DNA of 64,000 bases from a virus, in IMG/VR virus record IMGVR_UViG_3300044949_002468, positions 2,250 to 66,249 of that record; one strand, written 5' to 3'. Shown in pieces: positions 7,978 to 62,559 of this stretch. The position numbers were made by a program, and so were the translations under genes. The notes beneath the pieces are model-generated. The model saw only the letters and a list, made by a program, of their open reading frames with translations. It was not told the DNA's origin and did no database searches. The number at the start of each line of letters is the position of its first letter. Within the stretch, counting starts at the first letter, position 1.

Positions 7978-8231
7978 CCAACGAAGATATCGTAGACGCC
8001 CTCGATCGCCTGACCAAAGCGGTCGATACCATCAACCTCCAACCACGGCGGCGCTACCACTACGCCACACTCCCTGCCGAGGATGTCCTCCAATCGGCGC
8101 GCGTCTGCACCGATCCCGACAGCTACACCGCCGACGATCCGATCAGTGCCGCCGCCCGTGACCTCCTCAAACAAGGCTACCGATGGGTGCGTTGCGACCA
8201 CGGCCTCGCCGTATTCGAGAAACAGGCATGA
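7974..8231 (+). CDS. Hypothetical protein
   Basis: ATGA coupling. Confidence 0.65.
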   Translation: MTNEDIVDALDRLTKAVDTINLQPRRRYHYATLPAEDVLQSARVCTDPDSYTADDPISAAARDLLKQGYRWVRCDHGLAVFEKQA

Positions 8232-14213: not shown

Positions 14214-14629
14214 ACATCATGAACATCATCATGCCGTATCGGCACCCTGATTCACCCGACATCTGGGTGTTCGACGATGAAGCGCGCGACCTCGTGCGCG
14301 AGCCGTTTATCGGCGATGCAAATCAGTTACTCGACTACGCCGACGAGCAACTGGGCGGAAAAGGTAAGCTCGTCGTGTTTTTCCGATCCGACATGGGTGT
14401 TGATCCCGTGCATCAGCACTATGATAGCGTGTCCGTCGAAGCCAAGCTCATCGAAACTGATGCCACCGGATCCACTTATTCCGCTGAAGTCAGCCACGAT
14501 GGCGCAGTGCACTTCATGGCGGACAATATGTGGCTGTGCCCAGCCTTGTTGAAATACTTCGACAAAGCACCAAAGCGCATTCACGCCGCCATCGTCAGGC
14601 GCAACTCACGGCACAAATCTCGGAAGTAG
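14210..14629 (+). CDS. DUF6717-like protein
   Basis: WVFDD...LVREPF.G and WLCPALLKYFDKAP. Confidence 0.75.
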   Translation: MNIMNIIMPYRHPDSPDIWVFDDEARDLVREPFIGDANQLLDYADEQLGGKGKLVVFFRSDMGVDPVHQHYDSVSVEAKLIETDATGSTYSAEVSHDGAVHFMADNMWLCPALLKYFDKAPKRIHAAIVRRNSRHKSRK

Positions 14630-15364
14630 TGCCGTGCCGCCGCGCTTAAATCCCATCTTCTTGGCGATGCGCGTGTAGCTCTTGAACAATTTTCCGGTCT
14701 GCGTCACAGCACCCTTGTTGCCGCTATCGGCCATGGCATGAGGATGGAAATCCACCGACACCTTGTTCTTCTTGAAGTGCTTCATCAACGATCTGATGTT
14801 TCTGGCGCCTTTGGGTTTACCGATCATGTCATTGTCGGAATCTAGCAAGTCCCACACTGCATTACGCGGACCGTATTTGGTAACAATCGCACTTGTCTGA
14901 CCTCCACGCCCGACCACTTCAATCCGGCGCGGATTTGCATAAGCGGTTCCATCCGTGTCTGCGGTTCGACTGCGATACAACTTGGACTGAGGTGACATGA
15001 CGCCCCTGTAAATTCTCGTGTAGTTTGCGTCCCGCGACGATGGGCGGGGTATCATTTGAAATCCTTGCGGTGCAGGATTAACAGTGCGCGTTGAAACGCT
15101 GGGTGAAGCGGGGCTGACCCGATCACCTTTGCCAACGATCCAGCTGTCCTCCAGCCGAGACGATGAACTTCCGGTAGCAAGGATGCGCGCATCACGATCG
15201 CGCATTTTGCCAATTAACCGGCGATACCGCTCCGCTTTCGGACCCGAAGCATCGCCTTTTAGTTGCGTATTCGGCGCGCGCTCGGATCCAAAGTTGCCCA
15301 TGTAGCGCGCGATACCAAACTCCAACGCGGCAATTCTGCTGGCAACAAGATCGAGCAATCTCAC
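14606..15364 (-). CDS. Basic protein with N-terminal ASRIAALEF propeptide-like motif (putative head-packaged cargo)
   Basis: TTGACA-N13-GTG late motif; antisense within the early region. Confidence 0.65.
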   Translation of the reverse strand: MRLLDLVASRIAALEFGIARYMGNFGSERAPNTQLKGDASGPKAERYRRLIGKMRDRDARILATGSSSSRLEDSWIVGKGDRVSPASPSVSTRTVNPAPQGFQMIPRPSSRDANYTRIYRGVMSPQSKLYRSRTADTDGTAYANPRRIEVVGRGGQTSAIVTKYGPRNAVWDLLDSDNDMIGKPKGARNIRSLMKHFKKNKVSVDFHPHAMADSGNKGAVTQTGKLFKSYTRIAKKMGFKRGGTALLPRFVP

Positions 15365-15387
15365 CACGATTTAGCCCTGTCAATTTT

Positions 15388-16467: not shown

Positions 16468-18288
16468 TTATCCGCCACCCACCTCGTGCAGCTTGAGCGC
16501 GCCCTGCGCGTGGGCGTATTTCTCGTGATCTTCGCTGATCACCCCTGCGCACAGCGCATTCACCACCTGCATGGCCTCGCAGTCGAGCAAGTGGTTGTCT
16601 TTCCGCACCTGCTTCCACAATACCTGATACCGGCCGGTGCGCGGATTCTGCTTCATGATCTTGATCTCGGCATTTAAGTGCCTTGTGTATTCTTGCGGGA
16701 TGTCCCCGTGCACATGCCAACGACGAGGCTCCGCGTGGCGCATCACCGCGAGAATGTCCTTCACCGGATCATTCGCCCAATACACGTAACGCGCGCGGTT
16801 GTTCCGCTCGCTCTGCTGCACCGTGCCCAAAAACGGATCGCGCCATTGCACGGGCGACACTAGCCGTTGCACGCGATTCCCGTTCGGCAGACTGTGGACA
16901 AAGCCCTGCTTGCTGCTGCCCCACGCCCCGCGCCAATCTCGATCAACAAGCCATTTGCAGACCAAGTTGGTCTGGTCGGCACAGTCGATCATGACCAGAT
17001 TCGGATTCACCGCATACTTGGTCTGCAATGCGTCGCACTCCTCGATCGTTTCGAGAAAGCCAGCATGCAACAGCCAGCTTTCGCCGGTCTTGCTCCATGC
17101 CCGCACCACCGCCCAGAAGCCCGGCCTCTGAACGTCGATCGTCATGAGCGGCACCCGATCACGCTGCATCTCGGCAGGCACGTAGATTTCCGTCGGCACC
17201 GGCTCCTCGTCGTAGGCGTTCTCGCCATCCCAAGGCTCGGCCAAGGTGGAGTTCACAAAGTTTTGCCTGCCATCCAAAGTCGCCTTGCTCTGCAGCCAGC
17301 GCACCGCCAAGTTCCCCCATCGCGTTTGCTTCCACGGCGCGTAAAGCGCGGACAAATGATAGCTCCGGCGGGTCTTCTCAGCGGAAGGGTTGTTCGGCCG
17401 CCACTCTCCCGCCAACAGCATTCCCTGCTTGTAGACATCGGTGAACTTCTGCTCGCACTCCTGACACACATAGTGCGTGTTTTTCCGCACCTTCTCCATG
17501 TCCCAATCGCCGCCGGTCTTGGCCTCCTCCTGCTCCTTGTCCCACCACCTCACCTGCTTCCACAAAAGGCGGATCATCTGCTTACAGTGCGGACAGGGCA
17601 TCCAGTAATACCTCTGGTCCCCTTTCAAAAATTCCTGCCAAATCTCGCCGTACGCGATCGTCGGGGTCGACGTTTTCACCCTCTTGGGAAAGGTGAAGGA
17701 CTTCGTGCGCTCCTCGGCATTTTTCAGTGCCCCCGCCTCACGATCGTTTCTCAGCCCGAATTTATCGCACTCATCCATCAGAACACAGCCGCAAGGACGG
17801 CTACTGATTTGCGAGGCGGAGTTCGAACCCACGAAGAACAAGGCCGCACGAGCAAACCTCTGCTCGCGAGTGGTCCATAGAATCCGGTTCGACGGCTTCA
17901 AATCCGCCAACGGACGGCAATCATCGACCCACGGCATCCACCGGTTTCGCGAAAAGCTGCCGCCCAATTCCTTGTCAGGCATCACCCACAGCGTGTCGCG
18001 AGGATCGTTCACCAGCAACCAGCTTGTCCCCGCCATGACGATAGTTGTCTTGGCCACCTGCGCAGCAAAGCAAAGCGTCAGATCCTCGATCTGCTTGTCC
18101 TTGAACCCTTCCAGCGGCTCCCTCGCATACGGCGTCAGCGTTGTCGAGTAGGCGCCCTCGTTGTCGCCGCGCACATAGCAGTTCCGCTCCGCCCACTGCC
18201 ACACCGGCTCATCCGGTGCCGGCGCCAAAGTGTCGCGGCAAAACTGCTCCAGGCGCCCTCTGGCCTCGCTATGCCAGGACTTGCTCAT
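16468..18288 (-). CDS. terL: Terminase large subunit (lambda GpA family)
   Basis: TPYAREPL, AAQVAKTT, VLMDECD, TSTPT, GDQRYYWMPCPHC, nuclease TIDVQ, NHLLDCE. Confidence 0.92.
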   Translation of the reverse strand: MSKSWHSEARGRLEQFCRDTLAPAPDEPVWQWAERNCYVRGDNEGAYSTTLTPYAREPLEGFKDKQIEDLTLCFAAQVAKTTIVMAGTSWLLVNDPRDTLWVMPDKELGGSFSRNRWMPWVDDCRPLADLKPSNRILWTTREQRFARAALFFVGSNSASQISSRPCGCVLMDECDKFGLRNDREAGALKNAEERTKSFTFPKRVKTSTPTIAYGEIWQEFLKGDQRYYWMPCPHCKQMIRLLWKQVRWWDKEQEEAKTGGDWDMEKVRKNTHYVCQECEQKFTDVYKQGMLLAGEWRPNNPSAEKTRRSYHLSALYAPWKQTRWGNLAVRWLQSKATLDGRQNFVNSTLAEPWDGENAYDEEPVPTEIYVPAEMQRDRVPLMTIDVQRPGFWAVVRAWSKTGESWLLHAGFLETIEECDALQTKYAVNPNLVMIDCADQTNLVCKWLVDRDWRGAWGSSKQGFVHSLPNGNRVQRLVSPVQWRDPFLGTVQQSERNNRARYVYWANDPVKDILAVMRHAEPRRWHVHGDIPQEYTRHLNAEIKIMKQNPRTGRYQVLWKQVRKDNHLLDCEAMQVVNALCAGVISEDHEKYAHAQGALKLHEVGGG

Positions 18289-18904
18289 ACACCCGCTGCC
18301 CGTCAGCAATCGCCCGCTCGATATCCTGACGGATGATCTCCGCCGCCGTTATGTCATCCGCCGGATTGACCTTTGGCGCCAAAATCGCCGGAAGCCCGCG
18401 CAACCGCGCAAGCAAAGCCCCCCAGCCCTTCCCAAACATCTCACGCGCCTCATCGAAGGGTATCAGCACCCGCGCCTTCTCCTTGATCTCCAACACCATT
18501 TTCTCCGAGGCCATTCGGCCCTCTTTGGCGCGATTGTAGGTCTGAATTAAAAGTGGCAGCTTCTCCACCGAATCCGCCGCAATCGCCGCCTCCACCAGAT
18601 ACTTCGCCTGCTCCTCAATCTCGATCGACGCCTTCAGCGAAGCCTCCATCTCTGTCAAACTCCGCCTTTTCGGCAACCGCACTCGCGGTGCTGCCTCACC
18701 TTCTTCCACTGTCTCAACCCTCTTGCTCCGAAAACCCACGCCGCCGCGCGCATGGCTCAACCTCCACTCCCGCGCCGCCTCCAAAGAATCAACAGGACAC
18801 CCCTTCTGATTCTTCATGCGGCTCACATAGGCCACACTGGTCCCCCAGTCCGCCGCAATCTGAGCCAAAGTCACCTTCCCGCTTTCTGATACTTCCTTCT
18901 CCAT
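18269..18904 (-). CDS. terS: Terminase small subunit
   Basis: N-terminal HTH (TLAQIAADWGTSVAYVSRMK..GCP); Nu1-like C-terminus; directly upstream of terL. Confidence 0.8.
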   Translation of the reverse strand: MEKEVSESGKVTLAQIAADWGTSVAYVSRMKNQKGCPVDSLEAAREWRLSHARGGVGFRSKRVETVEEGEAAPRVRLPKRRSLTEMEASLKASIEIEEQAKYLVEAAIAADSVEKLPLLIQTYNRAKEGRMASEKMVLEIKEKARVLIPFDEAREMFGKGWGALLARLRGLPAILAPKVNPADDITAAEIIRQDIERAIADGQRVYEQVLA

Positions 18905-46296: not shown

Positions 46297-46719
46297 TCAA
46301 GCCAGCCGGATGTCCTTCTTGCGAAACGCCGACATGCTGCACTCCTTACGCCCCGTGCTCTCCCACTCAATCACCATCCGGTCGCCCTTGACCGACACGA
46401 TCTTGCCTTTGGTCCCCCGCTTGCGCGACACCACCGGCATCCCCGCTTTAGGCTCCATCGCCTTTGGCGCCACCTTCGGCGCGTTCGCTGCCATCTGGCT
46501 CACCTTCCGGTAGCCCGTGCGGCGAACAAAGCGCCCGTCCGACCACACCTTGAAATCCCGGAACTCGATGGTTCCCGCCTTGATCCCAGGATTCAGCACC
46601 TCGCGCACCCGCTCCGGCGAGCATTCCACCTGCTCCGCGATTTCCTCCCGCGTGCTCCAACCCTTCGGCCAGGCATAAGCCGAAACATTCATCCGGTTTA
46701 CTTCGGCTTTCCAGTTCAT
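46297..46719 (-). CDS. HTH plus SH3-like hypothetical protein
   Basis: PKGWSTREEIAEQVECS; coupled to the phosphoesterase. Confidence 0.65.
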   Translation of the reverse strand: MNWKAEVNRMNVSAYAWPKGWSTREEIAEQVECSPERVREVLNPGIKAGTIEFRDFKVWSDGRFVRRTGYRKVSQMAANAPKVAPKAMEPKAGMPVVSRKRGTKGKIVSVKGDRMVIEWESTGRKECSMSAFRKKDIRLA

Positions 46720-47720
46720 GCTAAAACAATCGGCGCCGTGATCGTGCGCCCTCTCTTCGAGTCGAAGAGAAAATATGTCTGCTGCGGCGGTTCATAGGAC
46801 GCCTTGATGCTGATCGCATACGCATTGTAGCCGATCAGCGACCCATTGCTCACCCACTTCGGATTCTGCTGTTGCGTGTGCCAGTGCCCGAAACAATCCA
46901 GATCCGCCACCCGCGCCTTGTTCCACGAGGCAATCGCCTTCTCCGTCGGGATGGTCAACCCGCCGATCCCGCCCTGATACTTCAACCCGTCCCCGTGGTG
47001 AAATCGCAGCGTCTTGCCGAAAAGATCCACGTAATTGAAATACGAATCCGACACCTGCCACTCCACCCCGTCCTGCACGCGCTGCGACATCACCTTGTAG
47101 AGCAACCACTCGTAGCTGTTGCGAAACCCCGTGGCATGCCTCGGCTTTTTCGTTGTTCGCCCATGGTTGCCGTAGCAACACGGAATCAAGACCCGCGCAA
47201 AATTCTGCCGCAATGAGGCAATCCCCCGCGACACCCGCTCCATCACCCACAAAATTGTCTCCGTCGGACTCAGCGCATTTGTCTCCGCCAGTTCCTCGTG
47301 GATATACCCACTCATCAAATCGCCACCCAAAAAAAGCACGCATGTGTCGATCTCCGCGCCGTTTCGCTCGATCTCCGTCAGCCGCACCACACTGTTGAAA
47401 AACTTCTCGATCCGGGCCTCCGCCACGCGCAGGTCGAAATGATTCAGCCCATTGGTCGAATCCGCCGTCACTTGCTCTTCCACGTGCCAATCACTCGCCA
47501 AAGCCACCGCCACCGCCTCGCACTTCGCCGTCTTCTTCACCGCCAACGGCTTCTGCGAGGGCTTCGCCGCATTCAACGCATCGACCACCCCCAGCTGCTC
47601 CTCCAATTCCTTGATCCGCTCCAGCCCGGCCGTAATCTGCCGCTTGTAATCCGACACCACACTGCGATGCGCGTGCTCCGCGCTCTCCCGCGCAATCGTT
47701 CCCCAGTTCTCCTTGGGCAT
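46716..47720 (-). CDS. Calcineurin-like metallophosphoesterase
   Basis: SDWH, GGD, GNHGR, HHGD, GHWH. Confidence 0.9.
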   Translation of the reverse strand: MPKENWGTIARESAEHAHRSVVSDYKRQITAGLERIKELEEQLGVVDALNAAKPSQKPLAVKKTAKCEAVAVALASDWHVEEQVTADSTNGLNHFDLRVAEARIEKFFNSVVRLTEIERNGAEIDTCVLFLGGDLMSGYIHEELAETNALSPTETILWVMERVSRGIASLRQNFARVLIPCCYGNHGRTTKKPRHATGFRNSYEWLLYKVMSQRVQDGVEWQVSDSYFNYVDLFGKTLRFHHGDGLKYQGGIGGLTIPTEKAIASWNKARVADLDCFGHWHTQQQNPKWVSNGSLIGYNAYAISIKASYEPPQQTYFLFDSKRGRTITAPIVLA

Positions 47721-48724: not shown

Positions 48725-49705
48725 TTAGGCTGTGTAGCCGGTCTTGATCAAAGTGCCTGCGCACTCGTTGACCACATGCTCGTCGTTGTTCTGGCGAACT
48801 CGGACCACATTGCTGCGGCGGGGTTCGTCACGATAGCTTTCGACGACATACATGAACTCGGCGTCTTCTTGCCAGTAGAAGATACGGCCGGCGCCGCCCA
48901 TCTCCGGAGCACCCGCTTGCACGTTGCCCAGCCAGATGTAATCGTCGCCCCAGAGGTAGGACAACTTGTTGTCCGCCACTGCGGTGTTCTTCGCCGCCGT
49001 GCTCTCCGTCGCTTCCGCGATGAAAAGCTGGGTGATCGGAGCGCTGTCTTGGAAGATCGACAGGAAGATGTCCTTGGTCACGATCTTGCCGCCGCTGTCT
49101 CCACCGAAGATGTATTCGCGGAGCTTGGTGCTGCGACGAACACGCTTCCAAATGTTACGGCTCATCACGATGGTGTTCACCGACTCCTGGCGCTTGTGCA
49201 CGCGGGCGATGGCTTCCTCGATGTCCGTAGCAACGTCGAGCGTGGCCACATTGGATTCGGTGTAGGCCACGGCAGCGTCAGCCTTGCCCCAGATCGACTC
49301 GTTCATGACCTTGGCCGCCACACGCTTCTCTTGCGCGCGGAGGATGTTGGCCAGCAACAAGCGGGTCGAAACGCTTTCCGCGTCGAAGAAACGCTGCAGA
49401 TCGGCCTGAGTGCTGTCATCGACAACTTCGGTCAAACCGCGGTCTTGGCAGGCAAACGAAGCCTTTGAATAGGTGCGATCGACTTCTTTGTAAGCCGTGC
49501 GCGGTGCGCGCAGCGTGATGTCGCTCGAGGTCGTGGCAAGGATATTGCCGCTGCCCTTGAGGATCTTGCGATACTCGCCCGTGTTGGTCGACACGCCGAA
49601 GGGCGTGAAAATTTTGTCAGCGATGAAAAACTTCTCAGCTTCCAAAGCCTCTTGCACCACCGTTTGGAGTTCGGGGCGAATTACTGCGTCTGTGTTTGTA
49701 TACAT
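48725..49705 (-). CDS. Major capsid protein (lambda gpE-like)
   Basis: 326 aa; FIADKIF, EKRVA, NTIVM, YRDE..RS.VVRVR; strong RBS; followed by a terminator. Confidence 0.88.
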   Translation of the reverse strand: MYTNTDAVIRPELQTVVQEALEAEKFFIADKIFTPFGVSTNTGEYRKILKGSGNILATTSSDITLRAPRTAYKEVDRTYSKASFACQDRGLTEVVDDSTQADLQRFFDAESVSTRLLLANILRAQEKRVAAKVMNESIWGKADAAVAYTESNVATLDVATDIEEAIARVHKRQESVNTIVMSRNIWKRVRRSTKLREYIFGGDSGGKIVTKDIFLSIFQDSAPITQLFIAEATESTAAKNTAVADNKLSYLWGDDYIWLGNVQAGAPEMGGAGRIFYWQEDAEFMYVVESYRDEPRRSNVVRVRQNNDEHVVNECAGTLIKTGYTA

Positions 49706-49723: not shown

Positions 49724-50080
49724 TTAGAGCGGGTACACCTCGATGACATCGCCATCCGCTGCGGCCGAACCCAGCGCGATGCCGAAGTTCGAACCAGCGC
49801 CGTCGGTGGTCACTTTGCCGTTAGCCGCACGCTTCACCACGGCGCCGATGGCCACTGCGCCACCCGCCACCACATCGAAGCTGCCGCCGCCATTGGTCAG
49901 ATTGACTTTGACGACCTGCGTTCCGTTGTTTGTCGAGTAGTCGGTCACACCGATTTCGATATCGGATGCCCCGGCCACTTCCAGTTTGCGGCTGCTGTTG
50001 AGTTTCACGCGGATGTCAGCCGCGATCCCAGACGAACTCGCCGCCACGAAGCTGTCTGCATTGTCTCTGATGTTTGCCAT
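49724..50080 (-). CDS. Head decoration/cement protein (DUF2190-like)
   Basis: IGVT..AGGAVAIGA..GIAL..AAADGDVIEV. Confidence 0.8.
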   Translation of the reverse strand: MANIRDNADSFVAASSSGIAADIRVKLNSSRKLEVAGASDIEIGVTDYSTNNGTQVVKVNLTNGGGSFDVVAGGAVAIGAVVKRAANGKVTTDGAGSNFGIALGSAAADGDVIEVYPL

Positions 50081-50100: not shown

Positions 50101-51390
50101 TTAGGCGTCAGCGAGTTTCACGATGCCGCGAGCGGCGTTGTGCTCGGCGTAAGCGCGCGGGTTGTCCTTCATCGCAAAACGGATCGCGTTCGCACGGGCC
50201 ACCGTCTTGCTCTCCCCCTTTCCCTCCAGCTCGGTCGCTTTCGCGCTAACCAGCCGGTCAAATTCAGTCACCTTCTCGTCGCCTTCCGGCGCGTTGAACA
50301 TGCGCAGGCTCTCCGTCCCCGGAGTTGCCGCCTTGATGCCCTGCAGGCGGATCGTGCGCTGCAAAGCGTCATTCTGCGCGGTCAGCGCGGTCATCTTCGC
50401 TTCGAGAACGTCGAAAGCGTGCATGACCTCGGCCTTCTCCGCGTCCTCGGCTTTCTGACCGAGTTGGCTTTCCAGTTCGACCACGCGCTTGCGCAGTTCG
50501 CTGAAAGCACCCTCGCCGCTCGCGGCACCGGCCGGAACAGCAGCAGCCTCACCGGCTTCACCAGCTTCTTGACCTTCGCCTTCGACGGCGCCTTCACCGG
50601 CTTCCGCTTCGACCGCCGCATTGTAAGCTTCGATCGCCTCGTTGACCTCATCGCGGGTGATGCCCTGTTCGGCCAATTCCGCATCGTTCATCGCAGCAAG
50701 CTCTTGCAGCTCCTCGGCGGTGATCGGGGTGTTAGCCTCGATCAAAGCATCGATCTCGGCCTGACGATTGGAGACATCGGTAACGGCCTCCTTGAGTTCA
50801 TTCAGCGCGGCGAGCACATCGGTGATCGTCGGCTCCTGCTGGTTCTGCTGGTTCTTATCCATAGAATTTTCATCGCGCGGTGTGTCAACCACCCGCCCAT
50901 CCGAAAACAAACCCGCCGGATTCGCCGCTGGCATCGCCACGCAATCCACGGCCAAAAGCTCTTCGCACCGCGCCGCCTTCTTCCCGGTCGGCAGCTTCTC
51001 GCCCTCCGGAGGACCGGCAAACGCCGCCGAAAGCCCGAAACAATCCGGCATCCTCACCGCGCGCTCCATCAGCGCATCGAATTCCTCGTGGCTCTTGAGC
51101 AAATGCCAATCCGCCACCACCTTGTCGCCCTCGCGACGGAATCCCTCCAAGTATCCGCAAATCGACTGCAAAGCCTGCGGATCTTTGTGGTTGAGTTTGA
51201 CCTGCACCCTCCCCTTGGAGTTCCCGCAAGTGACGATCTGCTCCAGCGTCCGGTCATCCACCTCCAGGTCATGACCGCGCGCGGTCACCCCGCCGGTGAT
51301 CACCGCTGCGCCACGAATGATCCCTGCCTCACGATCCACGCGGCCCGAAATGCCGCCCGCCGCAAATGAAAAAACTGCCGAGTTGTCCAT
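50101..51390 (-). CDS. Prohead protease with C-terminal scaffold
   Basis: ARGH, KLNH, FGLS, DCVAMPAANPAGLFS protease domain followed by an acidic coiled coil. Confidence 0.85.
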   Translation of the reverse strand: MDNSAVFSFAAGGISGRVDREAGIIRGAAVITGGVTARGHDLEVDDRTLEQIVTCGNSKGRVQVKLNHKDPQALQSICGYLEGFRREGDKVVADWHLLKSHEEFDALMERAVRMPDCFGLSAAFAGPPEGEKLPTGKKAARCEELLAVDCVAMPAANPAGLFSDGRVVDTPRDENSMDKNQQNQQEPTITDVLAALNELKEAVTDVSNRQAEIDALIEANTPITAEELQELAAMNDAELAEQGITRDEVNEAIEAYNAAVEAEAGEGAVEGEGQEAGEAGEAAAVPAGAASGEGAFSELRKRVVELESQLGQKAEDAEKAEVMHAFDVLEAKMTALTAQNDALQRTIRLQGIKAATPGTESLRMFNAPEGDEKVTEFDRLVSAKATELEGKGESKTVARANAIRFAMKDNPRAYAEHNAARGIVKLADA

Positions 51391-51565: not shown

Positions 51566-51886
51566 TTAGGGGTTTTTCTCCTGATGCCGCAGCCGGTCCT
51601 CGTGATCACTCACCGTCAGAGTCATCGCCTGCACCGCCGCATCCATCTTCGCCGCCCACCAGACCGTTGCGGCCAACTGAATGACCACCGCGACAAGGAT
51701 CGAATTGAACGTCGCCTTGAGAAACTTCGTCGTCTGATCCCGCTCCCTCAAAGTGACACGGATCTCGTGCGTCTCCCTTTGTAGATGATCCAAAGTCTCA
51801 GAGATCCGCGACAGCGCCGTGCTGTGGCGCTCCAGTTCCTTGTCGTGGTGATCAATCCGGTGTCCGTGGTGGTCATCGCTATTCAT
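51566..51886 (-). CDS. Coiled-coil plus single-TM protein
   Basis: ORF with hydrophobic ILVAVVIQLAATVWWAA. Confidence 0.65.
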   Translation of the reverse strand: MNSDDHHGHRIDHHDKELERHSTALSRISETLDHLQRETHEIRVTLRERDQTTKFLKATFNSILVAVVIQLAATVWWAAKMDAAVQAMTLTVSDHEDRLRHQEKNP

Positions 51887-51893
51887 GGTCAAA

Positions 51894-52667
51894 CTACATC
51901 ATTGGTTGCTCTTGCGGGCGCCCCATCATCGCCTTCATCCGCTGCACCAGACTCCGGCGCCGCATCATCTTCTCCTGCTCCACATTCCCGTAAGCCGCGT
52001 TCATGGAATTAGGATCCACCCCCGCCGTCTCATTTCCGACATACTGCCCCATGTCGTTGCGCGGACGCGGATCGACAAACTCGATCATGCCGGGACGAAC
52101 ACTAAATTCAGACGGCAGACTGTCCTGCACGTTCAATGACAGCCTGCGCCGCAGAGCGAAAGTCGTCGGCCGAGCTTTTGTGCGAGTAAACATGCTTGCC
52201 ACCTTTCCGGCGCGAAGCATGGCGGGCAACGCCGCGGCAAGAAATGGCAGCCCAAACTCGATCATGCCGGGTGTCAGCGACTCAAACCGTTTGCCCCGAC
52301 TTTCCTTGATCGTCTTCGCCGCCCAATCGCGATTGTAGCGCATCGCTCCCGTGGCCTGACCCAGCCCCTCGTCCTCGCCCCAATACTTCTTTGTCGCGCG
52401 CTGCACATTCTTCGGATTCTTCCGCAAGGAGGGAATCATCGTGCCCGACACGCCGATCTGATGGATCGACACAGGCTCCCCCGCATTGCCGATGCCCTTA
52501 GCCAACGCTTTCTTCAAAGCCGGAATCGCACGATCCCCGCGCATGAACTCGATCATGCCGGGATTCAGCGCCGACATCCCGCAAGAGCAACTGCCCTTGC
52601 TATACGGCTTCCTCCCTGGCACCGGCTTGCAACCTTTCCAGCACCGCCCTTTTTTCTTCGCAGTCAT
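51894..52667 (-). CDS. Modular basic protein with three PGMIEF linkers (putative internal head polyprotein)
   Basis: CWKG..PG..PYSKGSC module; RPRNDMGQY module; 17-bp identical repeats. Confidence 0.8.
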   Translation of the reverse strand: MTAKKKGRCWKGCKPVPGRKPYSKGSCSCGMSALNPGMIEFMRGDRAIPALKKALAKGIGNAGEPVSIHQIGVSGTMIPSLRKNPKNVQRATKKYWGEDEGLGQATGAMRYNRDWAAKTIKESRGKRFESLTPGMIEFGLPFLAAALPAMLRAGKVASMFTRTKARPTTFALRRRLSLNVQDSLPSEFSVRPGMIEFVDPRPRNDMGQYVGNETAGVDPNSMNAAYGNVEQEKMMRRRSLVQRMKAMMGRPQEQPMM

Positions 52668-53329
52668 TAGAATTTGCCTTTGCCAAAGACCGCACGAAAG
52701 ACCGCCCTTTGAAATTCCGGAGTGATCTTCGCCGCTTTTTTGCCTGCTTTCTCTGCGTTCTGGTTCTTCAAATGCAGAGCCTTGTAGTCGTTTAATTTCC
52801 GAGCGTCGGCCTTTTGAACCATCGCCAACTCAACAACCCGCGCTTTGATTTCCTGCGAGAACTTCAGTTTCCCGCCCGTGGCTACCGCAAGCCCCTTGCC
52901 CAGCGCCTTGCGGAAACGCCCGAAAAGTCCGGTGGTTCCAGCCTTGTTGCCAATCGCGCCCGGCTTGGTCGCGCGCCACGAACGCTGACCGGAAAGGAAA
53001 CCATCGTTACCAGCGTCAATCGCCCTGCCACCTATCGCGCGTCCCGACTCCATCAAGTCACGCCCCGCGCTGCGATAAGCCGACCCGCGCACTGCCATAC
53101 CGCTGCCGCCACCGCCGTAGCGATTCATGATTGCGCGATCCGCGACCAATCCGCCACCGACCGCACCGGCAGTCGCCGCTGCGCCACCCACCGTTTTGAA
53201 ATCGCCCACCGAGTTCGCCTCGGTGCCGTCCTCGCGATACCACTTGCCATCCGGCCCGCGCATCACGGCAAAAAGCTTCGCATCCACCTTGGCCTCCAAA
53301 GCCACCAGTTTGCTCTTGATCTCGTTCAT
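52667..53329 (-). CDS. Basic Gly-rich modular protein (putative internal head protein)
   Basis: RGPDGKW, Gly-zipper, FSQEIKARVVEL; TTGACT-N14-ATG. Confidence 0.75.
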   Translation of the reverse strand: MNEIKSKLVALEAKVDAKLFAVMRGPDGKWYREDGTEANSVGDFKTVGGAAATAGAVGGGLVADRAIMNRYGGGGSGMAVRGSAYRSAGRDLMESGRAIGGRAIDAGNDGFLSGQRSWRATKPGAIGNKAGTTGLFGRFRKALGKGLAVATGGKLKFSQEIKARVVELAMVQKADARKLNDYKALHLKNQNAEKAGKKAAKITPEFQRAVFRAVFGKGKF

Positions 53330-53351
53330 AAATGTTTTGGTTCAGTCAATT

Positions 53352-56300
53352 CTACTTCTTGGGATCTGGGGCCAGATAATCCGGCAGCCAGTGGCCCTTC
53401 TTGAAAGTCATCTTCTTCGGCGTCACAACTTGCAGCTTCGGCTTCCAGATTTTGCGCCCCACCAGCACGCCACCCGCCGTCCCCGCAATCGTTCCGGCCA
53501 AGGCCAACCCGCCCAAAATCTTGCGCTCCCCTTCCTTCTTCTCATACCACTCCGCCGGTCGCCGGTTGCGCTTTTTGGCCGTGGGAGAAAAAACACGCGC
53601 ACTGTTGCCGCGCGCATCGCGCAAGTCCCAGCCCTGCGTGCCGTAGTAGTCCTGATACATATCGAACGTCCGCACGGAGTTCTTCAGTCGGGCCGATAGA
53701 CCCATGATCTTGCCCAAACGGTCCTCCGCCGTAGCCCGCAGATTTTGCGCGCGGGCAATCGTGGCATCCGTGCCGCGACGGAACGACTTGGCCCAATTCG
53801 GAGCGGAACGGAGCCCGCCTTTGCGATAGACCACGCCAGCACCCAACAAAGCCGCTGCCCCCGCTGCCGTCTGCAGCTTGTTCTGGAACCAACTCTTCTC
53901 CCACTCGCGCTTCTTGGTTTTCTTACCCTGCGACACTTCCGAGACATCGCGCACCAACCCCATGCCGCGCTTGCGCGTCCGGTTGTATTCCTCCGCCTTG
54001 CGACGAGCCGCACTGATGAATGCCCCCGTGGTGATCGGTGCCGCCTCGACGCGCCCAGTCACCGGATTCTTCCGCGTCAGCGAACGCCCCTGCACGTAAT
54101 CATAGAACCCCGCCGCGCGACCCGTCTCCTCGTCGCGCGCATAGATGGCGAACTGATGCACCGCACCCTTGCGGGCAAATTTGTATTTCGTCCGCAACAT
54201 GGCCAAGGTCGCCCTCATCGCCTTACGCTCGCCGCGACTGTGCACCATCTTCATTTTGCTCCCCGCGCGGTAGCGACTCTTGATCTCCGACTCATACCGC
54301 TTGCCAATGGCCATCGCCTTGTTCGTCGCCTGATTCCTCTCCAGCGTATCCGGCTGCATGGATTTACGGATCGGCAACGGCTCGCGCTCGATCGAACCCT
54401 TCGGACCAAACCGCGCGTTGTTCACCTTGCCGCCCACCGACATGGAAGCACGGCGCTCGGCCCGCAACTGCTGGCCCAGCTTCATCCGCGCCTCTTCCGT
54501 CTGCATCGCCTTGGCCGACTTCCGCAAAGACCGCCAGCCTGCATAGCCGACCCCGGCCACCGGAGTCGCCACCGCGCCGGTGACAAGCAACTGCTGCTTC
54601 AGCCGCTCGCGCTCATCATAGACCGGATTCATCGGTGCCATCGGCGCCATGGTCTGAAATTCATACCGCGCCTCAAAAGGCAGCACCTTCATCAGCGACC
54701 GCAACTTCTGCGCCATCGCACCACGCGCGTTTTCCTTCTTGAGAACTTCTTTGATCGCCGGAGTCATCTTCATGCTCCGCATCTCCGCCGTGGAGCCAGG
54801 TCGATAAGTTTTGTCGTTCATCTCGATAAGTTCCTCCTTGGCCGAACAATTCCACCGCTTGAGCGCAGCACCTTTCGGCGTCAGCTTGCCATCCTTGCTC
54901 GTCGGCCCCTGCATCCCGCCCATACGCGCACAGAAAGATGCACGGCGCTTGGCCGCTTTGCTTCCCGGCTTGAGCTTGCTCGGATCTTTGGTCACCGGCC
55001 TTTTCAGATTGCTCCCGTGCTCGCGGTTGTATTTCGCGCGGAAGCTGTCATTCAGCCCGCCGCTTTTGGCGTGCCGCTTCTTGTTGTATCCGTGAAACGG
55101 TTTCTCCAACTCCACGAGCTGACCGGAAGCATCGAAGGCCCGCAATTTGCGGAACGTCGGGAACGTGGTCAGTTGCCGCTTGATCCAGCGCGAAGCCCGC
55201 GTAATCCGCGCACCCGCCACCCGCGCCCCGCGAGTCGCCTTGCGCGCATCGCCTGCCACCGCACCCACCTGATTCATCGCCTTGCCCGCGCGCCAACCGG
55301 CATAGCCAACCCCCGCGCCAACTCCGGCTCCCGCCGCCAAAACCCCCGATCCCGAAAGAACGTCCTTTGCCGCCTCGCTGCGAGATTCACGCCGCAGATC
55401 CCGCCAATCCTTCGACATCTCGAATTTGAAATCTTTGATCCGGCTCGAAAGCCCGTGCATCCGCTTCAGATCCTTGCGGATATTGCGGATGCTATCCACT
55501 TGCTGGCCCTCATCCGCGCCGGTTGCCGCGCCATAGGCGCCACCCGCCACCCCGCCAAGCGCCGCCGCTTTGATCGGCCCCGCCTTCTTGATCCACTGGG
55601 CCGGGCGCCATTCTTTGGCCAATTTTCCAACCTGTTTACGCACCACCGGAACCCGCCGCGCCACAAGGCCACCGGCTACTCCCAGCGTCCCGCCGACAAT
55701 GGCGCCGCCCACCGCCGCGCGTTTGGTAAAAGCCGCCCCTTCCTTTTTGTCAGGATCGCCCAAAATCGCACTGCCGAGCAAAGATCCGCCGCCAACAATC
55801 GCCCCACCCGCCGCCGCGCCACCCGCCGCCGTCCGCAATGCCGTCTTCACTCCGACCCCGCGACGAAGCAAAGGCAAAATCCCCAAAGCCGCGCCGGAAG
55901 CCGCACCCGACAACCCCGCCATCACATACGGATTCATCTGCCGCTTCTCTTTTTTGGAAAACTCGAAACGGGCATCCGACATCTTGAGGAGCTTCTTCCG
56001 CAAAATCCGGTAAGCACCATAGCCCGCCGCGCCCGCGCCGATCACCGCCGGTGCCGCCTCGGAACGAGCCGCCCAAGGCTGCCGCGCTCCGTAAACATCG
56101 CGCCCCGTCTTGTGCGTGACCGCCCGAACGCCGATCACACTACCCGCACCGGCCAAAGCACCCGCCGCCAAACGTGCCTTCAGCGGCAAACGGCCACGGC
56201 CCAAGACTGCCCCTGCTGCCGTGCCCGCGATTCCCGCACGCAAAATGTTGGAATCCCGCTTGGCAATATCCTTCTGCCGGTTCTCGATCACATAGCGGTC

Positions 56301-56390
56301 ATGGGCAATTTGGCCGGTCAAAGGAATGCCCGCCTCCCTGCCAATCGGATCCTGCCGCCTCTGTTTCGCCAAGTTCTCGCGCCGACTCAT
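53352..56390 (-). CDS. 1012-aa basic modular polyprotein (Gly-zipper modules plus a DUF6321-like module)
   Basis: Seven linker motifs; SGGLN..RAKYNRE.GSNLK..RRASFCARM..ALKRWNC; start set by TTGACA-N14-ATG. Confidence 0.8.
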   Translation of the reverse strand: MSRRENLAKQRRQDPIGREAGIPLTGQIAHDRYVIENRQKDIAKRDSNILRAGIAGTAAGAVLGRGRLPLKARLAAGALAGAGSVIGVRAVTHKTGRDVYGARQPWAARSEAAPAVIGAGAAGYGAYRILRKKLLKMSDARFEFSKKEKRQMNPYVMAGLSGAASGAALGILPLLRRGVGVKTALRTAAGGAAAGGAIVGGGSLLGSAILGDPDKKEGAAFTKRAAVGGAIVGGTLGVAGGLVARRVPVVRKQVGKLAKEWRPAQWIKKAGPIKAAALGGVAGGAYGAATGADEGQQVDSIRNIRKDLKRMHGLSSRIKDFKFEMSKDWRDLRRESRSEAAKDVLSGSGVLAAGAGVGAGVGYAGWRAGKAMNQVGAVAGDARKATRGARVAGARITRASRWIKRQLTTFPTFRKLRAFDASGQLVELEKPFHGYNKKRHAKSGGLNDSFRAKYNREHGSNLKRPVTKDPSKLKPGSKAAKRRASFCARMGGMQGPTSKDGKLTPKGAALKRWNCSAKEELIEMNDKTYRPGSTAEMRSMKMTPAIKEVLKKENARGAMAQKLRSLMKVLPFEARYEFQTMAPMAPMNPVYDERERLKQQLLVTGAVATPVAGVGYAGWRSLRKSAKAMQTEEARMKLGQQLRAERRASMSVGGKVNNARFGPKGSIEREPLPIRKSMQPDTLERNQATNKAMAIGKRYESEIKSRYRAGSKMKMVHSRGERKAMRATLAMLRTKYKFARKGAVHQFAIYARDEETGRAAGFYDYVQGRSLTRKNPVTGRVEAAPITTGAFISAARRKAEEYNRTRKRGMGLVRDVSEVSQGKKTKKREWEKSWFQNKLQTAAGAAALLGAGVVYRKGGLRSAPNWAKSFRRGTDATIARAQNLRATAEDRLGKIMGLSARLKNSVRTFDMYQDYYGTQGWDLRDARGNSARVFSPTAKKRNRRPAEWYEKKEGERKILGGLALAGTIAGTAGGVLVGRKIWKPKLQVVTPKKMTFKKGHWLPDYLAPDPKK

Positions 56391-56449
56391 CGCCACCACC
56401 GACCTGTCAATTCGGCCCTCTGAAATCTGCAATTTCAAATCTGAAATCC

Positions 56450-56623
56450 TCACGGCTGCCCCCTCCATTGATGAATAAACATCTGCATGCTGTTGCGTAG
56501 CTGCTGCAGATCGCGCCGCGCGATGGCCAGATCCATCGTCAGCTTGTCGCAGCGGTCCACGAGGGACTGCAACTCACGCATCGCCGCCGCTTCCGCTTCC
56601 GTTGTCTGGATTTCTGCTTGCAT
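56450..56623 (-). CDS. Small coiled-coil protein
   Basis: ORF overlapping the end of the portal gene. Confidence 0.4.
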   Translation of the reverse strand: MQAEIQTTEAEAAAMRELQSLVDRCDKLTMDLAIARRDLQQLRNSMQMFIHQWRGQP

Positions 56624-58325
56624 CAGATTGTTGCGGACGGCTTTCCGGCACCAGCGCCTCCGCCTTGGCGCGCGGCACCCCGTAAACGTAGACCAGACTT
56701 TGGATCGCGCTCTCGCGCTCCAGCTTGCCCTCGGCATGGGCCGTGAGCACATCAATCAACTGTGCAGCGGTCTTTTCGCCCACCTTGCCGACCAAGCCCT
56801 TAACCGGAGGCGGCGGCATTTCCGGCGGCATATTGATCGCCGCCAACATCTGGGTCGCGTTCTGCATGGACGGCACGATCAGTTCGATCGGCACCACGGA
56901 TTCCGCCGCGACTTCCTGCAACTGCTTGACCTCGCGGGCCAGCGTGCGCGCCACTTCCAGATTGCTCGATCCGTCGATCTCCTCGATCACCTTGCCGCGC
57001 GGGATAATGCCGTTCTGCAACAAAAGCATCTGCTCCTGCACATAGTTGCCGGTATCGCCGGTCAGGCGCGCCCCGAAATTCCAACTGCCCGATTTCCACA
57101 GCGGATGCGGCGTGATCTTGCCCATGGCAATGGCCCGCTCCAGCACCAGATCGCGGACTTTGTTCAAAACCTTGTCCACGAGCAACTGCTGGTATTGCTG
57201 GATCGTCCGCATCGCCTGCATCACCTCGATCCGCGCCGTCACACCGCCCAAAAGCGCCATGTTGTAGACAAAGCCGAACGGCAAATTCAGCCCCAAGGCC
57301 ATCTCGCGGATCAGGATCTCGACAAACTGCATCAGATTCCCGGACGGACGGCCCGTGCTGCCGGGGAAGGTGATTTCCTCACCCTCTTGAAGCCTTTTGA
57401 TCATGCCTGCCTGCACCTCGAAAGCATTCGGCCCGCCCGCGCCCGTGCCGCTCTTGGTCATCCAATCCAACCCGCTGCCGGTCGGGGCGCTGTCCTTGCG
57501 GCGGATGAATCCGGCAAAGGCGGCAGCAAATTTCATCGCCAATTTTTCAAAGCCAAACAGTTCATGGATGTCCCGCGCATGGGGCAAAAGCGGCGACAGC
57601 CAGCTATCCCCGTGGTATTGGTCCGCCCGCGTCGGACGGAACAAATGCAGGAACAGTTCCGGCGGCACGATCCCCGCACCCAGCCCCATGTCGAAAGTCT
57701 CCTTGGTGTATTGCGCCATCCGCGAACGGCGGTAAATCTCGTAGCCGGTCACGCGGCCCACTTGGTCGATATGGATGCCGTTGATGCAATACTCGTCGGC
57801 CTTCACTGTATCCGGCCCGCCGATCCGGTCGGCCTCGATCGGTTGCAGGCGGATCTCGTCGCCATCCGGCACGATGATCCACCCGTATTCCCCATCCCGC
57901 GCCGTGGCTCGGAACCCCAACTGCACCAACTCGGCCAGCCGGTAACGCCCCGTCACATCCGCCCGCCCGCACCAATCATGGAAATAGTCCTGGTATTCTT
58001 GGTCGATGTCCGAATCTCCCGTCCTCGACTGATATGTAATCGCCCCGCAAGTGTATTGGGTCAGCTTTTCCAGCACCCCGCGGATGAAGCAAAACTTCTC
58101 CTCCATGTCCCGCGCTTCCCAGATGCGGTTGATCCGCTGACGCTGCTTGCGCTGGGTTTCGGGCGAACCCTGCCGCGTCTTGCCGCCGCTATTCCCGCGC
58201 TGCTCGCGGTTCCAATCCCCCCGCTCGAACTCCTGCAGCCAGTGTTTTGACACCAGCCGCCGCAACCCCGCTTCGGGGGCGACAGCGGCAATCGCCTTGT
58301 CCAGAAATGTGATCTTTTGCTCCAT
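56574..58325 (-). CDS. Portal protein (lambda family)
   Basis: DKAIAAVAP..G.RR, RDGE, LQPIEADRI, GI.ID..GR..GY, HLFRP.R.DQ.HG. Confidence 0.92.
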   Translation of the reverse strand: MEQKITFLDKAIAAVAPEAGLRRLVSKHWLQEFERGDWNREQRGNSGGKTRQGSPETQRKQRQRINRIWEARDMEEKFCFIRGVLEKLTQYTCGAITYQSRTGDSDIDQEYQDYFHDWCGRADVTGRYRLAELVQLGFRATARDGEYGWIIVPDGDEIRLQPIEADRIGGPDTVKADEYCINGIHIDQVGRVTGYEIYRRSRMAQYTKETFDMGLGAGIVPPELFLHLFRPTRADQYHGDSWLSPLLPHARDIHELFGFEKLAMKFAAAFAGFIRRKDSAPTGSGLDWMTKSGTGAGGPNAFEVQAGMIKRLQEGEEITFPGSTGRPSGNLMQFVEILIREMALGLNLPFGFVYNMALLGGVTARIEVMQAMRTIQQYQQLLVDKVLNKVRDLVLERAIAMGKITPHPLWKSGSWNFGARLTGDTGNYVQEQMLLLQNGIIPRGKVIEEIDGSSNLEVARTLAREVKQLQEVAAESVVPIELIVPSMQNATQMLAAINMPPEMPPPPVKGLVGKVGEKTAAQLIDVLTAHAEGKLERESAIQSLVYVYGVPRAKAEALVPESRPQQSDASRNPDNGSGSGGDA

Positions 58326-61150: not shown

Positions 61151-61513
61151 TCATGTTTGGCCTGACTCATCGTTTACCGCCTCCACCGCCGCACGCGCCT
61201 TGGCGATCATCTCCAAGGACGCCAGCCCCTTCTCCATGTCGCACCATTCGCTCGGCTTCATCAGCCCGCTGGATAGCGCGATCTTCCGTGCCGGAATCTC
61301 CTTGGCCCGCCGCAATCGCGCCACCTCGCGAGCCGCCAAGACCCGCTGCGCTTCCTCCCCGAAAACACTCCCCTTCGTCTTGCACCTCGGACAATCCTTC
61401 TCCGGTCGCACATAGACGCCGCTATCATCATTCTCCCCATCCCAAAATCCCCACGAGGCATGAATCACGCCCATGCCATCGCATTCCGGACACGTTGCTT
61501 GCAGCGCACTCAT
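61151..61513 (-). CDS. DnaJ-type Zn finger plus HTH protein
   Basis: CPECDGMG, CPRCKTKG; C-terminal Xre-like helix pattern. Confidence 0.65.
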   Translation of the reverse strand: MSALQATCPECDGMGVIHASWGFWDGENDDSGVYVRPEKDCPRCKTKGSVFGEEAQRVLAAREVARLRRAKEIPARKIALSSGLMKPSEWCDMEKGLASLEMIAKARAAVEAVNDESGQT

Positions 61514-62559
61514 GAGATCAGCTTCAACACCTCCCGCACCACCCGCGCCGGTTCCAAAGTTCCCAGCGCCTCGCACTTGCCGGTGATCGAACACGGCCCA
61601 TCCGGCGGATACGCACCGCCGCGCCCGTGCCAGTAGCACGGCGCACAACTCAATGCCCCCTGCAACGCACGGACGGTCGGCGCATACGCCGTGCGCGCCT
61701 GCCACGGAAACGATCCGTAAAGAGCCACGGTCGGCAGCCGGAGCGCCCCCGCCAGATGCGTGATCGCGCTATCCGGCGCCAGCACCACATCGCAGCACTC
61801 CAAGACCGCCGCCGATTGCCCGAACGTCTGCGCCACCTGCGCCACATTCAAAATGCTCGGATGGTTCGCTTCCAACTGGACGGTGCCCGGCGCGCCGAAC
61901 AGCGCCAATTCCGCTGCCGGTAGCTCCTGCAGCAACCCCCGAATCACCTCCACCATCAATTCCTTCGGATACGTCCGCGCCGGACTCGACGCCATCAACT
62001 GGATCCCGATCCGGTAAAGCTGCTCCTTGGGAAAATGCACCTTGGCCCACGCCCGATCCTCATCCCGCACGGCAAAGCTCAATTCCTTGCCCTCGGTCAG
62101 TTCCACCCCCGCCGACTCGGCAAACAAATCCACCGCATGACGCTCTGGCTCCTCGGCAAACTCGATCACTCCCTCCAGCCACATCTCGCGGTCATAAGGC
62201 AGCACCTCGGTCAGCTTCATCGGATACTCCCGCCACTCGACCGGAACCCCCGACAACGCCTCGCGGTATTTCGAGTGACAGCACACTGTCACCTCCTTGC
62301 CCGCCGCTACCAACGTCCGCAAAAGCGGGGTCATAAACAACAGATCCCCGAATCCGCCACTCCGCGTCAGTAGCACCGTCTTGAAATCTGAACTTTCAAA
62401 TCTTAAATCCCGATCCCGCACCTCGGTCGCCAGCCCCATCATGAGCAAATGCCCCAAGGTCGGATCTTCCACCACATACGCCCTGCCTGCCTCGAACCGC
62501 AGCCCATGGCCCTCGTAATCCTGCCTCACGCTCACCACTCGTCCGCTTATTTTTGCCAT
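61510..62559 (-). CDS. Glycosyltransferase family 9 (heptosyltransferase-like)
   Basis: RSGGFGDLLFMTP; PDSAITHLAGAL.LPTVALYG; C.PC. Confidence 0.9.
   Translation of the reverse strand: MAKISGRVVSVRQDYEGHGLRFEAGRAYVVEDPTLGHLLMMGLATEVRDRDLRFESSDFKTVLLTRSGGFGDLLFMTPLLRTLVAAGKEVTVCCHSKYREALSGVPVEWREYPMKLTEVLPYDREMWLEGVIEFAEEPERHAVDLFAESAGVELTEGKELSFAVRDEDRAWAKVHFPKEQLYRIGIQLMASSPARTYPKELMVEVIRGLLQELPAAELALFGAPGTVQLEANHPSILNVAQVAQTFGQSAAVLECCDVVLAPDSAITHLAGALRLPTVALYGSFPWQARTAYAPTVRALQGALSCAPCYWHGRGGAYPPDGPCSITGKCEALGTLEPARVVREVLKLIS

Follow-up and report, generated by a model that had tools for sequence, protein, structure and literature searches.

What purpose is served by proteins that look like strings of unrelated pieces and are encoded in the middle of a phage head-gene block? 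This question is raised by a 64-kb stretch of viral DNA (hereafter the window) out of the 66,249-base linear virus record IMGVR_UViG_3300044949_002468, which is estimated to be 80% complete. Three adjacent, co-oriented genes, A, B and C, lie there between the portal gene and the gene for a prohead protease fused to a scaffold. An earlier reading of the letters without database searches (the sequence-only reading) had described all three as very basic, which they are (Table 1), and had proposed that their modules are joined by a recurring linker that loads them into the head and is cut there. We put the probability a little above even that temperate phages of Verrucomicrobiota here use a capsid-targeting and cleavage system like that of T4, extended to exchangeable polyproteins. 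The modules of A, B and C would then probably be loaded into the capsid and cut apart inside it.

Every linker listed by the sequence-only reading is found where it had placed it, as are a near copy and KVTEF in the scaffold and VSKHWLQEF in the portal. The linker pattern, which was defined after the sequences had been seen and which we tested in a strict form, occurs 8 times in the 1515 amino acids (aa) of A, B and C and 11 times in the 15016 aa of the 57 other open reading frames (ORFs) of the window. Shuffled versions of A, B and C contain it 0.59 ± 0.76 times, and none of 5000 shuffles reached 8. We also derived a position matrix from the 127 distinct 8-mers at junctions in 81 large homologs of A. 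Its score is at least 7 at 12 places in A, B and C and at 26 places in the other 15016 aa; the matches in A are partly circular because a near-identical copy (P0001) is in the training set.

The linkers coincide with places where homology starts and stops. Protein A, which measures 1038 aa from the first start codon and 1012 aa from the Met at 56390, is laid out as a 27-aa leader followed by eight modules (aa 28-170, 171-351, 352-454, 455-550, 551-604, 605-773, 774-935 and 936-1038), the fourth of which holds the family DUF6321. When A was aligned by BLAST with 80 non-identical homologs, 149 of the 402 alignment ends fell no more than 5 residues from eight linkers that together cover 15% of the protein, a count equalled in 8 of 10000 random placements. 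Breakpoint peaks lie on linkers at aa 18, 164, 350, 450, 547 and 941, and away from them at aa 40, 333, 392, 812, 887, 989 and 1010.

The sequence-only reading had also expected related phages to gain or lose modules at the linkers, and they do. In relatives that are at least 60% identical, insertions of about 83-250 aa are located exactly in linkers, with the inserted module flanked by two linker copies: at the linker of aa 163-170 in P0003, P0007, P0010 and P0011 (about 83-180 aa), at that of aa 445-454 in P0008, P0010 and P0011, and at that of aa 541-550 in P0006 (about 250 aa). Module order is permuted as well, with DUF6321 ahead of the block of aa 168-454 in P0012, P0014, P0016 and P0020. 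Relatives carry 190-510 additional N-terminal residues upstream of the RIDRSVVAM junction, and by this comparison the first 27 residues of A are a linker remnant. Taken together, these alignments indirectly support the view that linkers mark module borders and the sites at which modules are gained, lost and permuted.

Modules also exist as genes of their own, as the sequence-only reading had anticipated. The C-terminal module of A recurs in 234 representative clusters (E ≤ 0.001) whose proteins measure 81-1888 aa, nearly always at the C-terminus, and its GWDxRD motif is preceded by a linker ending in F, L or M in nearly all relatives. In stand-alone copies of this module (99, 114 and 171 aa), Met and 6-12 residues ending in F stand immediately before it. 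Its AlphaFold2 model is weak (predicted local distance difference test score, pLDDT, 69.7; predicted template modeling score, pTM, 0.30), and a protein atlas search with the module gave one lead at 0.77, below a useful level. The DUF6321-like domain noticed in the letters is a clear Pfam match (PF19846; A aa 467-539, 54.4 bits against a cut-off of 28.5, E 2e-14), and this domain stands alone in pelagiphage and cyanophage records.

In many lineages the small ORFs between portal and protease start with 12-25 residues that end in phi-x-x-F (phi, hydrophobic). We scored the first 40 residues of such ORFs with a matrix trained on the internal junctions of the large proteins only, leaving out cargo ORFs of more than 700 aa. 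The median was 3.31 for 137 smaller cargo-region ORFs and 0.51 for 519 ORFs outside the interval (Mann-Whitney p 2e-8), and a score of at least 8 was reached by 37 and 19 of them, respectively; ORFs here are longest open frames, and some in both sets are spurious. Some leaders closely repeat the scaffold site: the leader in L052 ends in RLREL followed by SAR, and the scaffold site of L006 reads VKEL followed by SAR. Residues 7-104 of B align with aa 179-275 of a fused protein in L008, and therefore the N-terminal leader of B is an internal linker in L008; orthologs of B retain the leader in L026 and L097. The last module of C (aa 198-249) is likewise the N-terminus of separate ORFs in L004-L006. 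At the level of sequence, then, the linker and the N-terminal leader are equivalent.

Over 145 junction contexts the consensus reads L or V (84), any residue, E or Q (103), and F (113), L (24) or M (8), followed by D, E, A or S (119). When homologous junctions are compared (before and after DUF6321, before the C-terminal module and before the NPYV module), the peptide differs between lineages and is alike within one protein. The group of the window uses LVEL, LIEM and MIEF, another lineage MKQF, VKEF and LKQF, and a third LTQF throughout; across 6 lineages, junctions of different classes scored 4.22 within one genome versus 1.45 between lineages. To measure co-variation, we compared the three residues before the final F, L or M in 18 lineages (protease domains <80% identical), with hand-corrected entries for L052 and L056, in which the junction rule had misplaced the last residue. 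Comparisons with the portal kept 15 of the 18, motifs from truncated portal ORFs being dropped. Portal sites resembled their own cargo junctions at 2.41 versus 0.40 ± 0.67 when permuted, a value reached in 35 of 20000 permutations, which overstates the independence of the data because the lineages are related. This lends modest support to the view that linker flavor varies with the phage's own portal site.

The portal and the scaffold share the motif. In portals of all lineages, phi-[AS]-[RK]-x-x-phi-x-x-F is conserved at aa ~25-35 and is followed by GYD or ERGD. The portal of the window belongs to the same family as lambda gpB (BLASTP E 9e-8), for which the lambda RefSeq record (NC_001416) annotates a cleaved 22-aa leader containing L-R-E-Y and a mature start of G-Y-H-G-G-G(SG). 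By this comparison, the point at which the gpB leader is removed is the place equivalent to the portal F followed by G-Y-D here. In the scaffold, site 1 is located at the start of the coiled coil and reads [FLM]-[SA]-x-L-x-x-x-V-x-x-[LF] followed by [ESA], a motif kept in 58 of 58 non-redundant protease-scaffold proteins. L095, a locus without cargo genes, is one of these 58; the scaffold site is therefore older than the cargo peptide, which seems to be copied from it. That the linker peptide resembles the scaffold and portal sites and also heads cargo genes gives indirect support to the idea, put forward in the sequence-only reading, of a tag that mimics the scaffold.

The 429-aa protease-scaffold protein has no match by sequence in Pfam, NCBIfam or the PDB; its N-terminal domain is conserved, its C-terminal half is acidic, and a PDB profile search yields coiled-coil matches only. 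An AlphaFold2 model of aa 1-175, made from 33 sequences, has a pLDDT of 81.9, and its top Foldseek match is T4 gp21 (5jbl; E 1.4e-4, probability 1.00, template modeling score 0.52-0.55), with herpesvirus proteases next. H40, H68, S121 and D149 are invariant in the 33 sequences. According to the cited passages of PMC5694885, gp21-type proteases use a His-Ser-Asp triad, and the triad of this protease is presumably made up from among these residues. One homolog carries PF10123 (Mu-like protease) and another is named 'Prohead protease' by UniRef. The model and these matches support the prediction that the gene next to the cargo encodes a protease with the gp21/assemblin capsid-maturation fold. Given a lambda-family portal and a gp21-fold protease, the head is therefore lambda-like in its portal but has a gp21-fold protease fused to its scaffold. 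The lambda-like head of the sequence-only reading holds for the portal (PF05136) and not for the protease, which has no S49 match in Pfam or NCBIfam. A complex prediction of the protease domain with C residues 112-152 scored 0.00 and has no bearing either way.

From these observations we infer how targeting, cleavage, packaging, ejection and the function of the modules could be linked. Each cargo gene would start with a peptide of ~10-25 residues that ends in [LV]-x-[EQ]-[FLM], mostly with D, E, A or S next, and that imitates the site at the start of the scaffold coiled coil and the site in the N-terminal leader of the portal; the same peptide would join the modules. During procapsid assembly, this peptide may guide the precursor into the core of the scaffold, much as the capsid-targeting sequence does in T4. 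Once active, the gp21-fold serine protease would cut the scaffold, the portal leader and the cargo at linker sites, either between E/Q and F, in keeping with the T4 rule of cutting after Glu, or directly behind F, near the annotated maturation point of the lambda portal. The products, some 15 small and very basic pieces of which many have a Gly/Ala-rich hydrophobic helix, would stay with the DNA and leave with it at infection. Because each joint would carry both address and cut site, gain, loss or reordering of modules at joints would leave loading intact.

The sequence-only reading had put the number of pieces at about 15, and computed cutting at all listed sites gives 16 of 2-19 kDa, two of the linkers used in A being without breakpoint support; almost all pieces are basic, and 7 have a transmembrane (TM)-like segment. 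Gly and Ala make up 19-32% of A, B and C (26% of A, which has 8 TM-like segments). The hairpins that had been called Gly-zippers are thus borne out as Gly/Ala-rich hydrophobic segments by composition, but no Pfam glycine-zipper family matches the window's own proteins. The charge and the hydrophobic helices of the pieces suggest association with DNA or action on membranes after ejection. It is tempting to speculate further that portal, scaffold and cargo carry a lineage-specific peptide code ('load here, cut here') by which a lambda-like temperate phage loads any number of exchangeable mini-proteins from a few polyprotein genes. In this fuller version, which we advance tentatively and think somewhat unlikely as a whole, the default cargo would be basic glycine-zipper membrane peptides that build or open a path for DNA through the unusual Verrucomicrobiota/Planctomycetes envelope after ejection, and relatives would swap in enzymes such as InPase.

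Several observations weigh against cleavage and loading by a single reader. About 29% of junctions have no E/Q before F, and therefore a strict rule of cleavage after Glu, as in T4, does not account for every junction; conservation of the last residue is in turn partly built in, because the picking rule demands F, L or M. Co-variation is not significant between scaffold and cargo (1.65 versus 0.60 ± 0.73; 1637 of 20000 permutations) or between portal and scaffold (2.20 versus 1.23; 1778 of 20000). Two of the linkers proposed in A, FEARYEF and FARKGAVHQF, show no breakpoint peak against the 80 homologs. Leaders are absent from some cargo ORFs, such as those of the DPRPRN module in L006 and L007. 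Moreover, the motif is short and degenerate. Window proteins that are not part of the head module contain 21 places with a matrix score of at least 7, and the highest score in the window, 15.9 (WLEGVIEF), falls at aa 127-134 of a glycosyltransferase-like gene (61510-62559, minus strand). That match is probably due to chance, though the gene is co-oriented with the late genes and lies upstream of the head genes. Three exact 17-nucleotide (nt) copies in C (52078-52094, 52255-52271 and 52546-52562), which encode the PGMIEF part and between which the DNA is unrelated, point to recent duplication or conversion at the joints, and such identical copies show that recombination alone can homogenize linkers without any reader. 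Lastly, no cultured phage in the phage collection matches the capsid protein or, by tblastn, A beyond DUF6321.

The 17-nt copies also bear on the alternative that A, B and C are packaged internal, ejection or other structural proteins that stay uncut. The peptide would then be an assembly contact (with scaffold, portal or coat) as well as a recombination joint, and its copies would give avidity and allow shuffling. Modularity and shuffling at joints need no cleavage, the identical copies show that recombination or conversion does occur there, and hydrophobic, basic modules are what one would expect of membrane-active ejection proteins. We nevertheless consider this explanation doubtful, since the motif occupies the portal position at which the lambda record annotates a removed leader and is also found in the scaffold of a protease-scaffold fusion, T4 scaffolds being protease substrates. 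The short N-terminal leaders of stand-alone modules look like propeptides, and searches against PHROGs found no homology to P22 or T7 ejection proteins.

A different protease could also do the cutting: the strings might be cut at the linkers by a host protease, or after ejection, and the motif in portal and scaffold would reflect common ancestry of the peptides and not one reader. The conserved F fits this idea, as does the similar L-x-E-aromatic sequence at the lambda portal, where the record names an S49-family protease, a hint that the motif need not be tied to one type of protease; the weak co-variation between scaffold and cargo points the same way. However, linker flavor follows the phage lineage and its portal site, and the genes always lie between portal and protease, which makes this explanation quite improbable. 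Marginally less probable again is that A, B and C encode no virion cargo but membrane proteins at work in the infected cell, with a part in lysis, superinfection exclusion or envelope remodeling. Their TM-like, Gly/Ala-rich segments and the XhlA-like match of the neighboring gene D, which is weak (E 0.0029, below the cut-off), would agree with such a role. Against it stand the position of the genes inside the head-assembly block in 73 loci, sizes of up to 1956 aa, the motif they have in common with portal and scaffold, and the InPase domain carried by relatives, which the cited part of Iyer et al. classes as virion-packaged. A chance pattern in low-complexity basic sequence might be suspected, as the pattern was defined after the fact and a blind repeat search with BLOSUM seed words of 5-6 residues returned Gly/Ala-rich words only, without recovering the gapped, degenerate linker, but it is scarcely credible given the shuffling result and given that the breakpoints, the leaders and the stand-alone modules all emerged from analyses that made no use of the pattern.

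Capsid targeting followed by cleavage, the reading that we prefer, has its closest precedent in T4. There, according to the cited passages of PMC9958956 and PMC3012670, a capsid-targeting sequence of ~10 residues brings IPII and IPIII into the scaffold core, and gp21 then removes small peptides from the N-termini of IPI-III and Alt and breaks the scaffold down. As far as those passages go, the two systems have in common a short N-terminal peptide on otherwise unrelated, exchangeable head-internal proteins (predicted to be such here), a protease of the same fold encoded beside the scaffold, and a protease site shared (here by sequence) between scaffold and cargo; most linkers here also contain L/V-x-E/Q, resembling a cut after Glu. 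Unlike in T4, the peptide is also an internal joint, with up to 8 modules per gene, and its most conserved residue is the following F (or L or M). Pfam and PHROG searches found no sequence homology to IPI-III or Alt. The head here, with its PF05136 portal, is lambda-like, protease and scaffold form one fused protein, and the group is temperate and lives in Verrucomicrobiota.

In phiKZ-like giant phages, the cited parts of PMC10052503 and PMC5694885 describe head and ejection proteins that are cut at A/S/G-x-E by SPN3US gp245 or phiKZ gp175. They report that gp245 removes N-terminal propeptides, the portal's included, and that giant phages have many ejection proteins among the substrates. Shared with those phages, to judge from these parts, are one gp21-type prohead protease that processes many head proteins, an N-terminal propeptide on the portal and propeptides able to hold several sites (all predicted here). 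Their propeptides are discarded, leaving one mature protein per gene, whereas here the pieces between sites look like the products; motif and phage type differ too.

The polyvalent proteins of Iyer et al. 2017 (PMC5512222) provide a third comparison. In the sections cited, InPase is among these virion-delivered proteins, and their release is proposed to depend on embedded zincin peptidases. Polyvalent proteins are likewise mosaics, with two to 15 unrelated domains in one polypeptide; their genes neighbor portal and head genes, and their packaging and delivery are predicted (A has 8 modules, and 73 loci keep the position). Relatives of A carry the InPase domain of that paper, whose catalogue includes enzymes, anti-restriction and DNA-binding domains. 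PF18823 was found in P0027 at E 3e-42 and is precomputed for P0029, P0031, P0048 and P0054; Pfam finds no InPase domain in the window's own proteins. In contrast to polyvalent proteins, A, B and C contain no enzyme from the catalogue, DUF6321 being their sole identified domain; Pfam detects no peptidase family in them or in six relatives, and the proposed reader of the repeated joint is the prohead protease. Such joints are not described in the sections cited, in which the words linker, glycine zipper and transmembrane are not used. Lambda itself differs in that its record names gpC an S49-family peptidase and no cargo genes lie between lambda B and C. No PHROG family with a function like that of P22- or T7-type ejection or internal core proteins was matched, and tblastn against the phage collection found the DUF6321 part only.

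Our search of the literature on capsid targeting, prohead proteases and internal proteins found no printed description of the system; the matches listed concern T4, giant phages, P1 and P22. A search on DUF6321 found nothing, and none of the matches listed for phage polyproteins with prohead proteases concerns this system. The comparisons above partly support the view that a temperate, lambda-like group of phages has extended T4-style targeting and trimming to exchangeable polyproteins. Should the joints prove to be cut sites, a single short peptide would explain the addressing, release and swapping of proteins in capsids. There would then be a simple rule for capsid cargo in a large uncultured phage group, predicting the mature products of >200 clusters of unannotated proteins and extending the T4 capsid-targeting principle to lambda-like heads and polyproteins, and a natural design for loading foreign proteins into capsids.

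The group is temperate and lives in Verrucomicrobiota. Confirmed viral-contig matches to the protease family number 178, and we kept 80 of them (79 distinct loci); 95 viral loci were fetched in all, and 73 of these hold both portal and protease, 0-10.2 kb apart, a variable cargo space that is in line with the reading we prefer. In bacterial genomes we found 34 protease loci, nearly all in Verrucomicrobiota (Chthoniobacter, 83% identity), with a few in Planctomycetes and two Betaproteobacteria fragments. One is from a cultured strain, Verrucomicrobium sp. BvORR034 (L107), whose prophage offers a way in for experiments and has cargo ORFs with N-terminal leaders ending in LLTQF and LLTSF. In the same prophage, two leaderless ORFs (239 and 309 aa) lie at 6345-8063, between an 891-aa cargo protein and the leader-bearing ORFs.

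Table 1. Head-block features in the window, by position on the minus strand from portal to capsid gene.
Feature	Position	Strand	Evidence or remark
Portal protein, 583 aa	56574..58325	-	PF05136, lambda family; E 2.7e-41, 142.4 bits vs cut-off 32.9
Portal linker-like site VSKHWLQEF	58227..58253	-	End of N-terminal leader; conserved portal motif
Cargo polyprotein A, 1038 aa, isoelectric point (pI) 11.0	53352..56468	-	81 homologs of 570-1817 aa; DUF6321 match
A: leader/linker remnant RIDRSVVAM	56388..56414	-	Start of A; P0002 and P0010 read FSRIDR[SG]VVAM there, after extra modules
A: linker MSDARFEF, aa 163-170	55959..55982	-	Breakpoint peak aa 164; insertions in relatives
A: linker LSSRIKDFKFEM, aa 340-351	55416..55451	-	Breakpoint peak aa 350
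A: linker FDASGQLVEL, aa 445-454	55107..55136	-	Immediately ahead of DUF6321; peak aa 450, 34 alignment ends
A: linker CSAKEELIEM, aa 541-550	54819..54848	-	Immediately behind DUF6321; peak aa 547, 29 ends
A: linker FEARYEF	54657..54677	-	Listed in sequence-only reading; no breakpoint peak
A: linker FARKGAVHQF	54150..54179	-	Listed in sequence-only reading; no breakpoint peak
A: linker LSARLKNSVRTF, aa 924-935	53664..53699	-	Ahead of conserved C-terminal module; breakpoint peak aa 941
A: C-terminal module, aa 936-1038	53355..53663	-	Most conserved cargo module, GWDxRD..RGxSARVFxP and one hydrophobic helix; 234 representative clusters
Cargo gene B, 220 aa, pI 10.4	52667..53329	-	20-aa leader ending AKLF; one internal linker
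B: leader LEAKVDAKLF	53270..53299	-	Within the 20-aa N-terminal leader
B: internal linker FSQEIKARVVEL	52826..52861	-	Listed in sequence-only reading; present
Cargo gene C, 257 aa, pI 10.5	51894..52667	-	Four pieces, three x-PGMIEF linkers
C: linker MSALNPGMIEF	52545..52577	-	x-PGMIEF type
C: linker FESLTPGMIEF	52254..52286	-	x-PGMIEF type
C: linker FSVRPGMIEF	52077..52106	-	x-PGMIEF type
Small gene D, 108 aa, pI 6.4	51566..51892	-	One C-terminal hydrophobic helix; without linker
Prohead protease (aa 1-175) fused to acidic coiled-coil scaffold, 429 aa	50101..51390	-	Fold search and alignment
Scaffold site 1, FSELRKRVVEL then ES	50473..50505	-	Conserved across scaffolds
Scaffold site KVTEF	50260..50274	-	Linker-like
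Decoration protein	49724..50080	-	PF09956, Phage_cement_2
Major capsid protein	48725..49705	-	phrog_1005, major head protein

Gene D is kept between cargo and protease in L001-L003 only, and it is uncertain whether it is part of the cargo system. An exonuclease-like gene (phrog_284) and a small neighbor follow the capsid gene in the window (46297-47720, minus strand). The same pair lies inside the portal-to-protease interval in L006 (9620-11113), L007 (16104-17604) and L032 (6755-8190), where neither gene has a leader. The large and small terminase genes (16468-18904, minus strand) are ~38 kb from the portal in window coordinates, past the integrase and the early region. A lone minus-strand gene amid plus-strand early genes (14606-15367) starts with a linker-like peptide (ending in LDLVASRIAALEF, then G); the fetched proteins and loci contain no relative of this gene, and Pfam, PHROG and NCBIfam give no match.

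DUF6321 is the sole type of family matched by A, B or C across Pfam, PHROG and NCBIfam. Two domains seen by eye in relatives, an N-terminal module resembling ADP-ribosyltransferases (P0002, P0010 and L032) and a stretch resembling ParB (P0058), gave no Pfam match at E up to 1 and were set aside. The Cys-rich N-terminal peptide of C (CWKG..PYSKGSC, aa 8-28), which the sequence-only reading had singled out, recurs inside P0065 and P0068 at 71-76% identity and may be a second mini-module that travels with DUF6321. P0065 has DUF6321 in its precomputed Pfam list, and both proteins are without a linker after the DUF6321 end. Finally, a 40-nt repeat family (63-70% identity) in A, at 54519-54558, 55278-55317 and 55995-56034, covers the G-Y-A-G-W-R end of three hydrophobic segments, and several modules of A therefore look like old paralogs.

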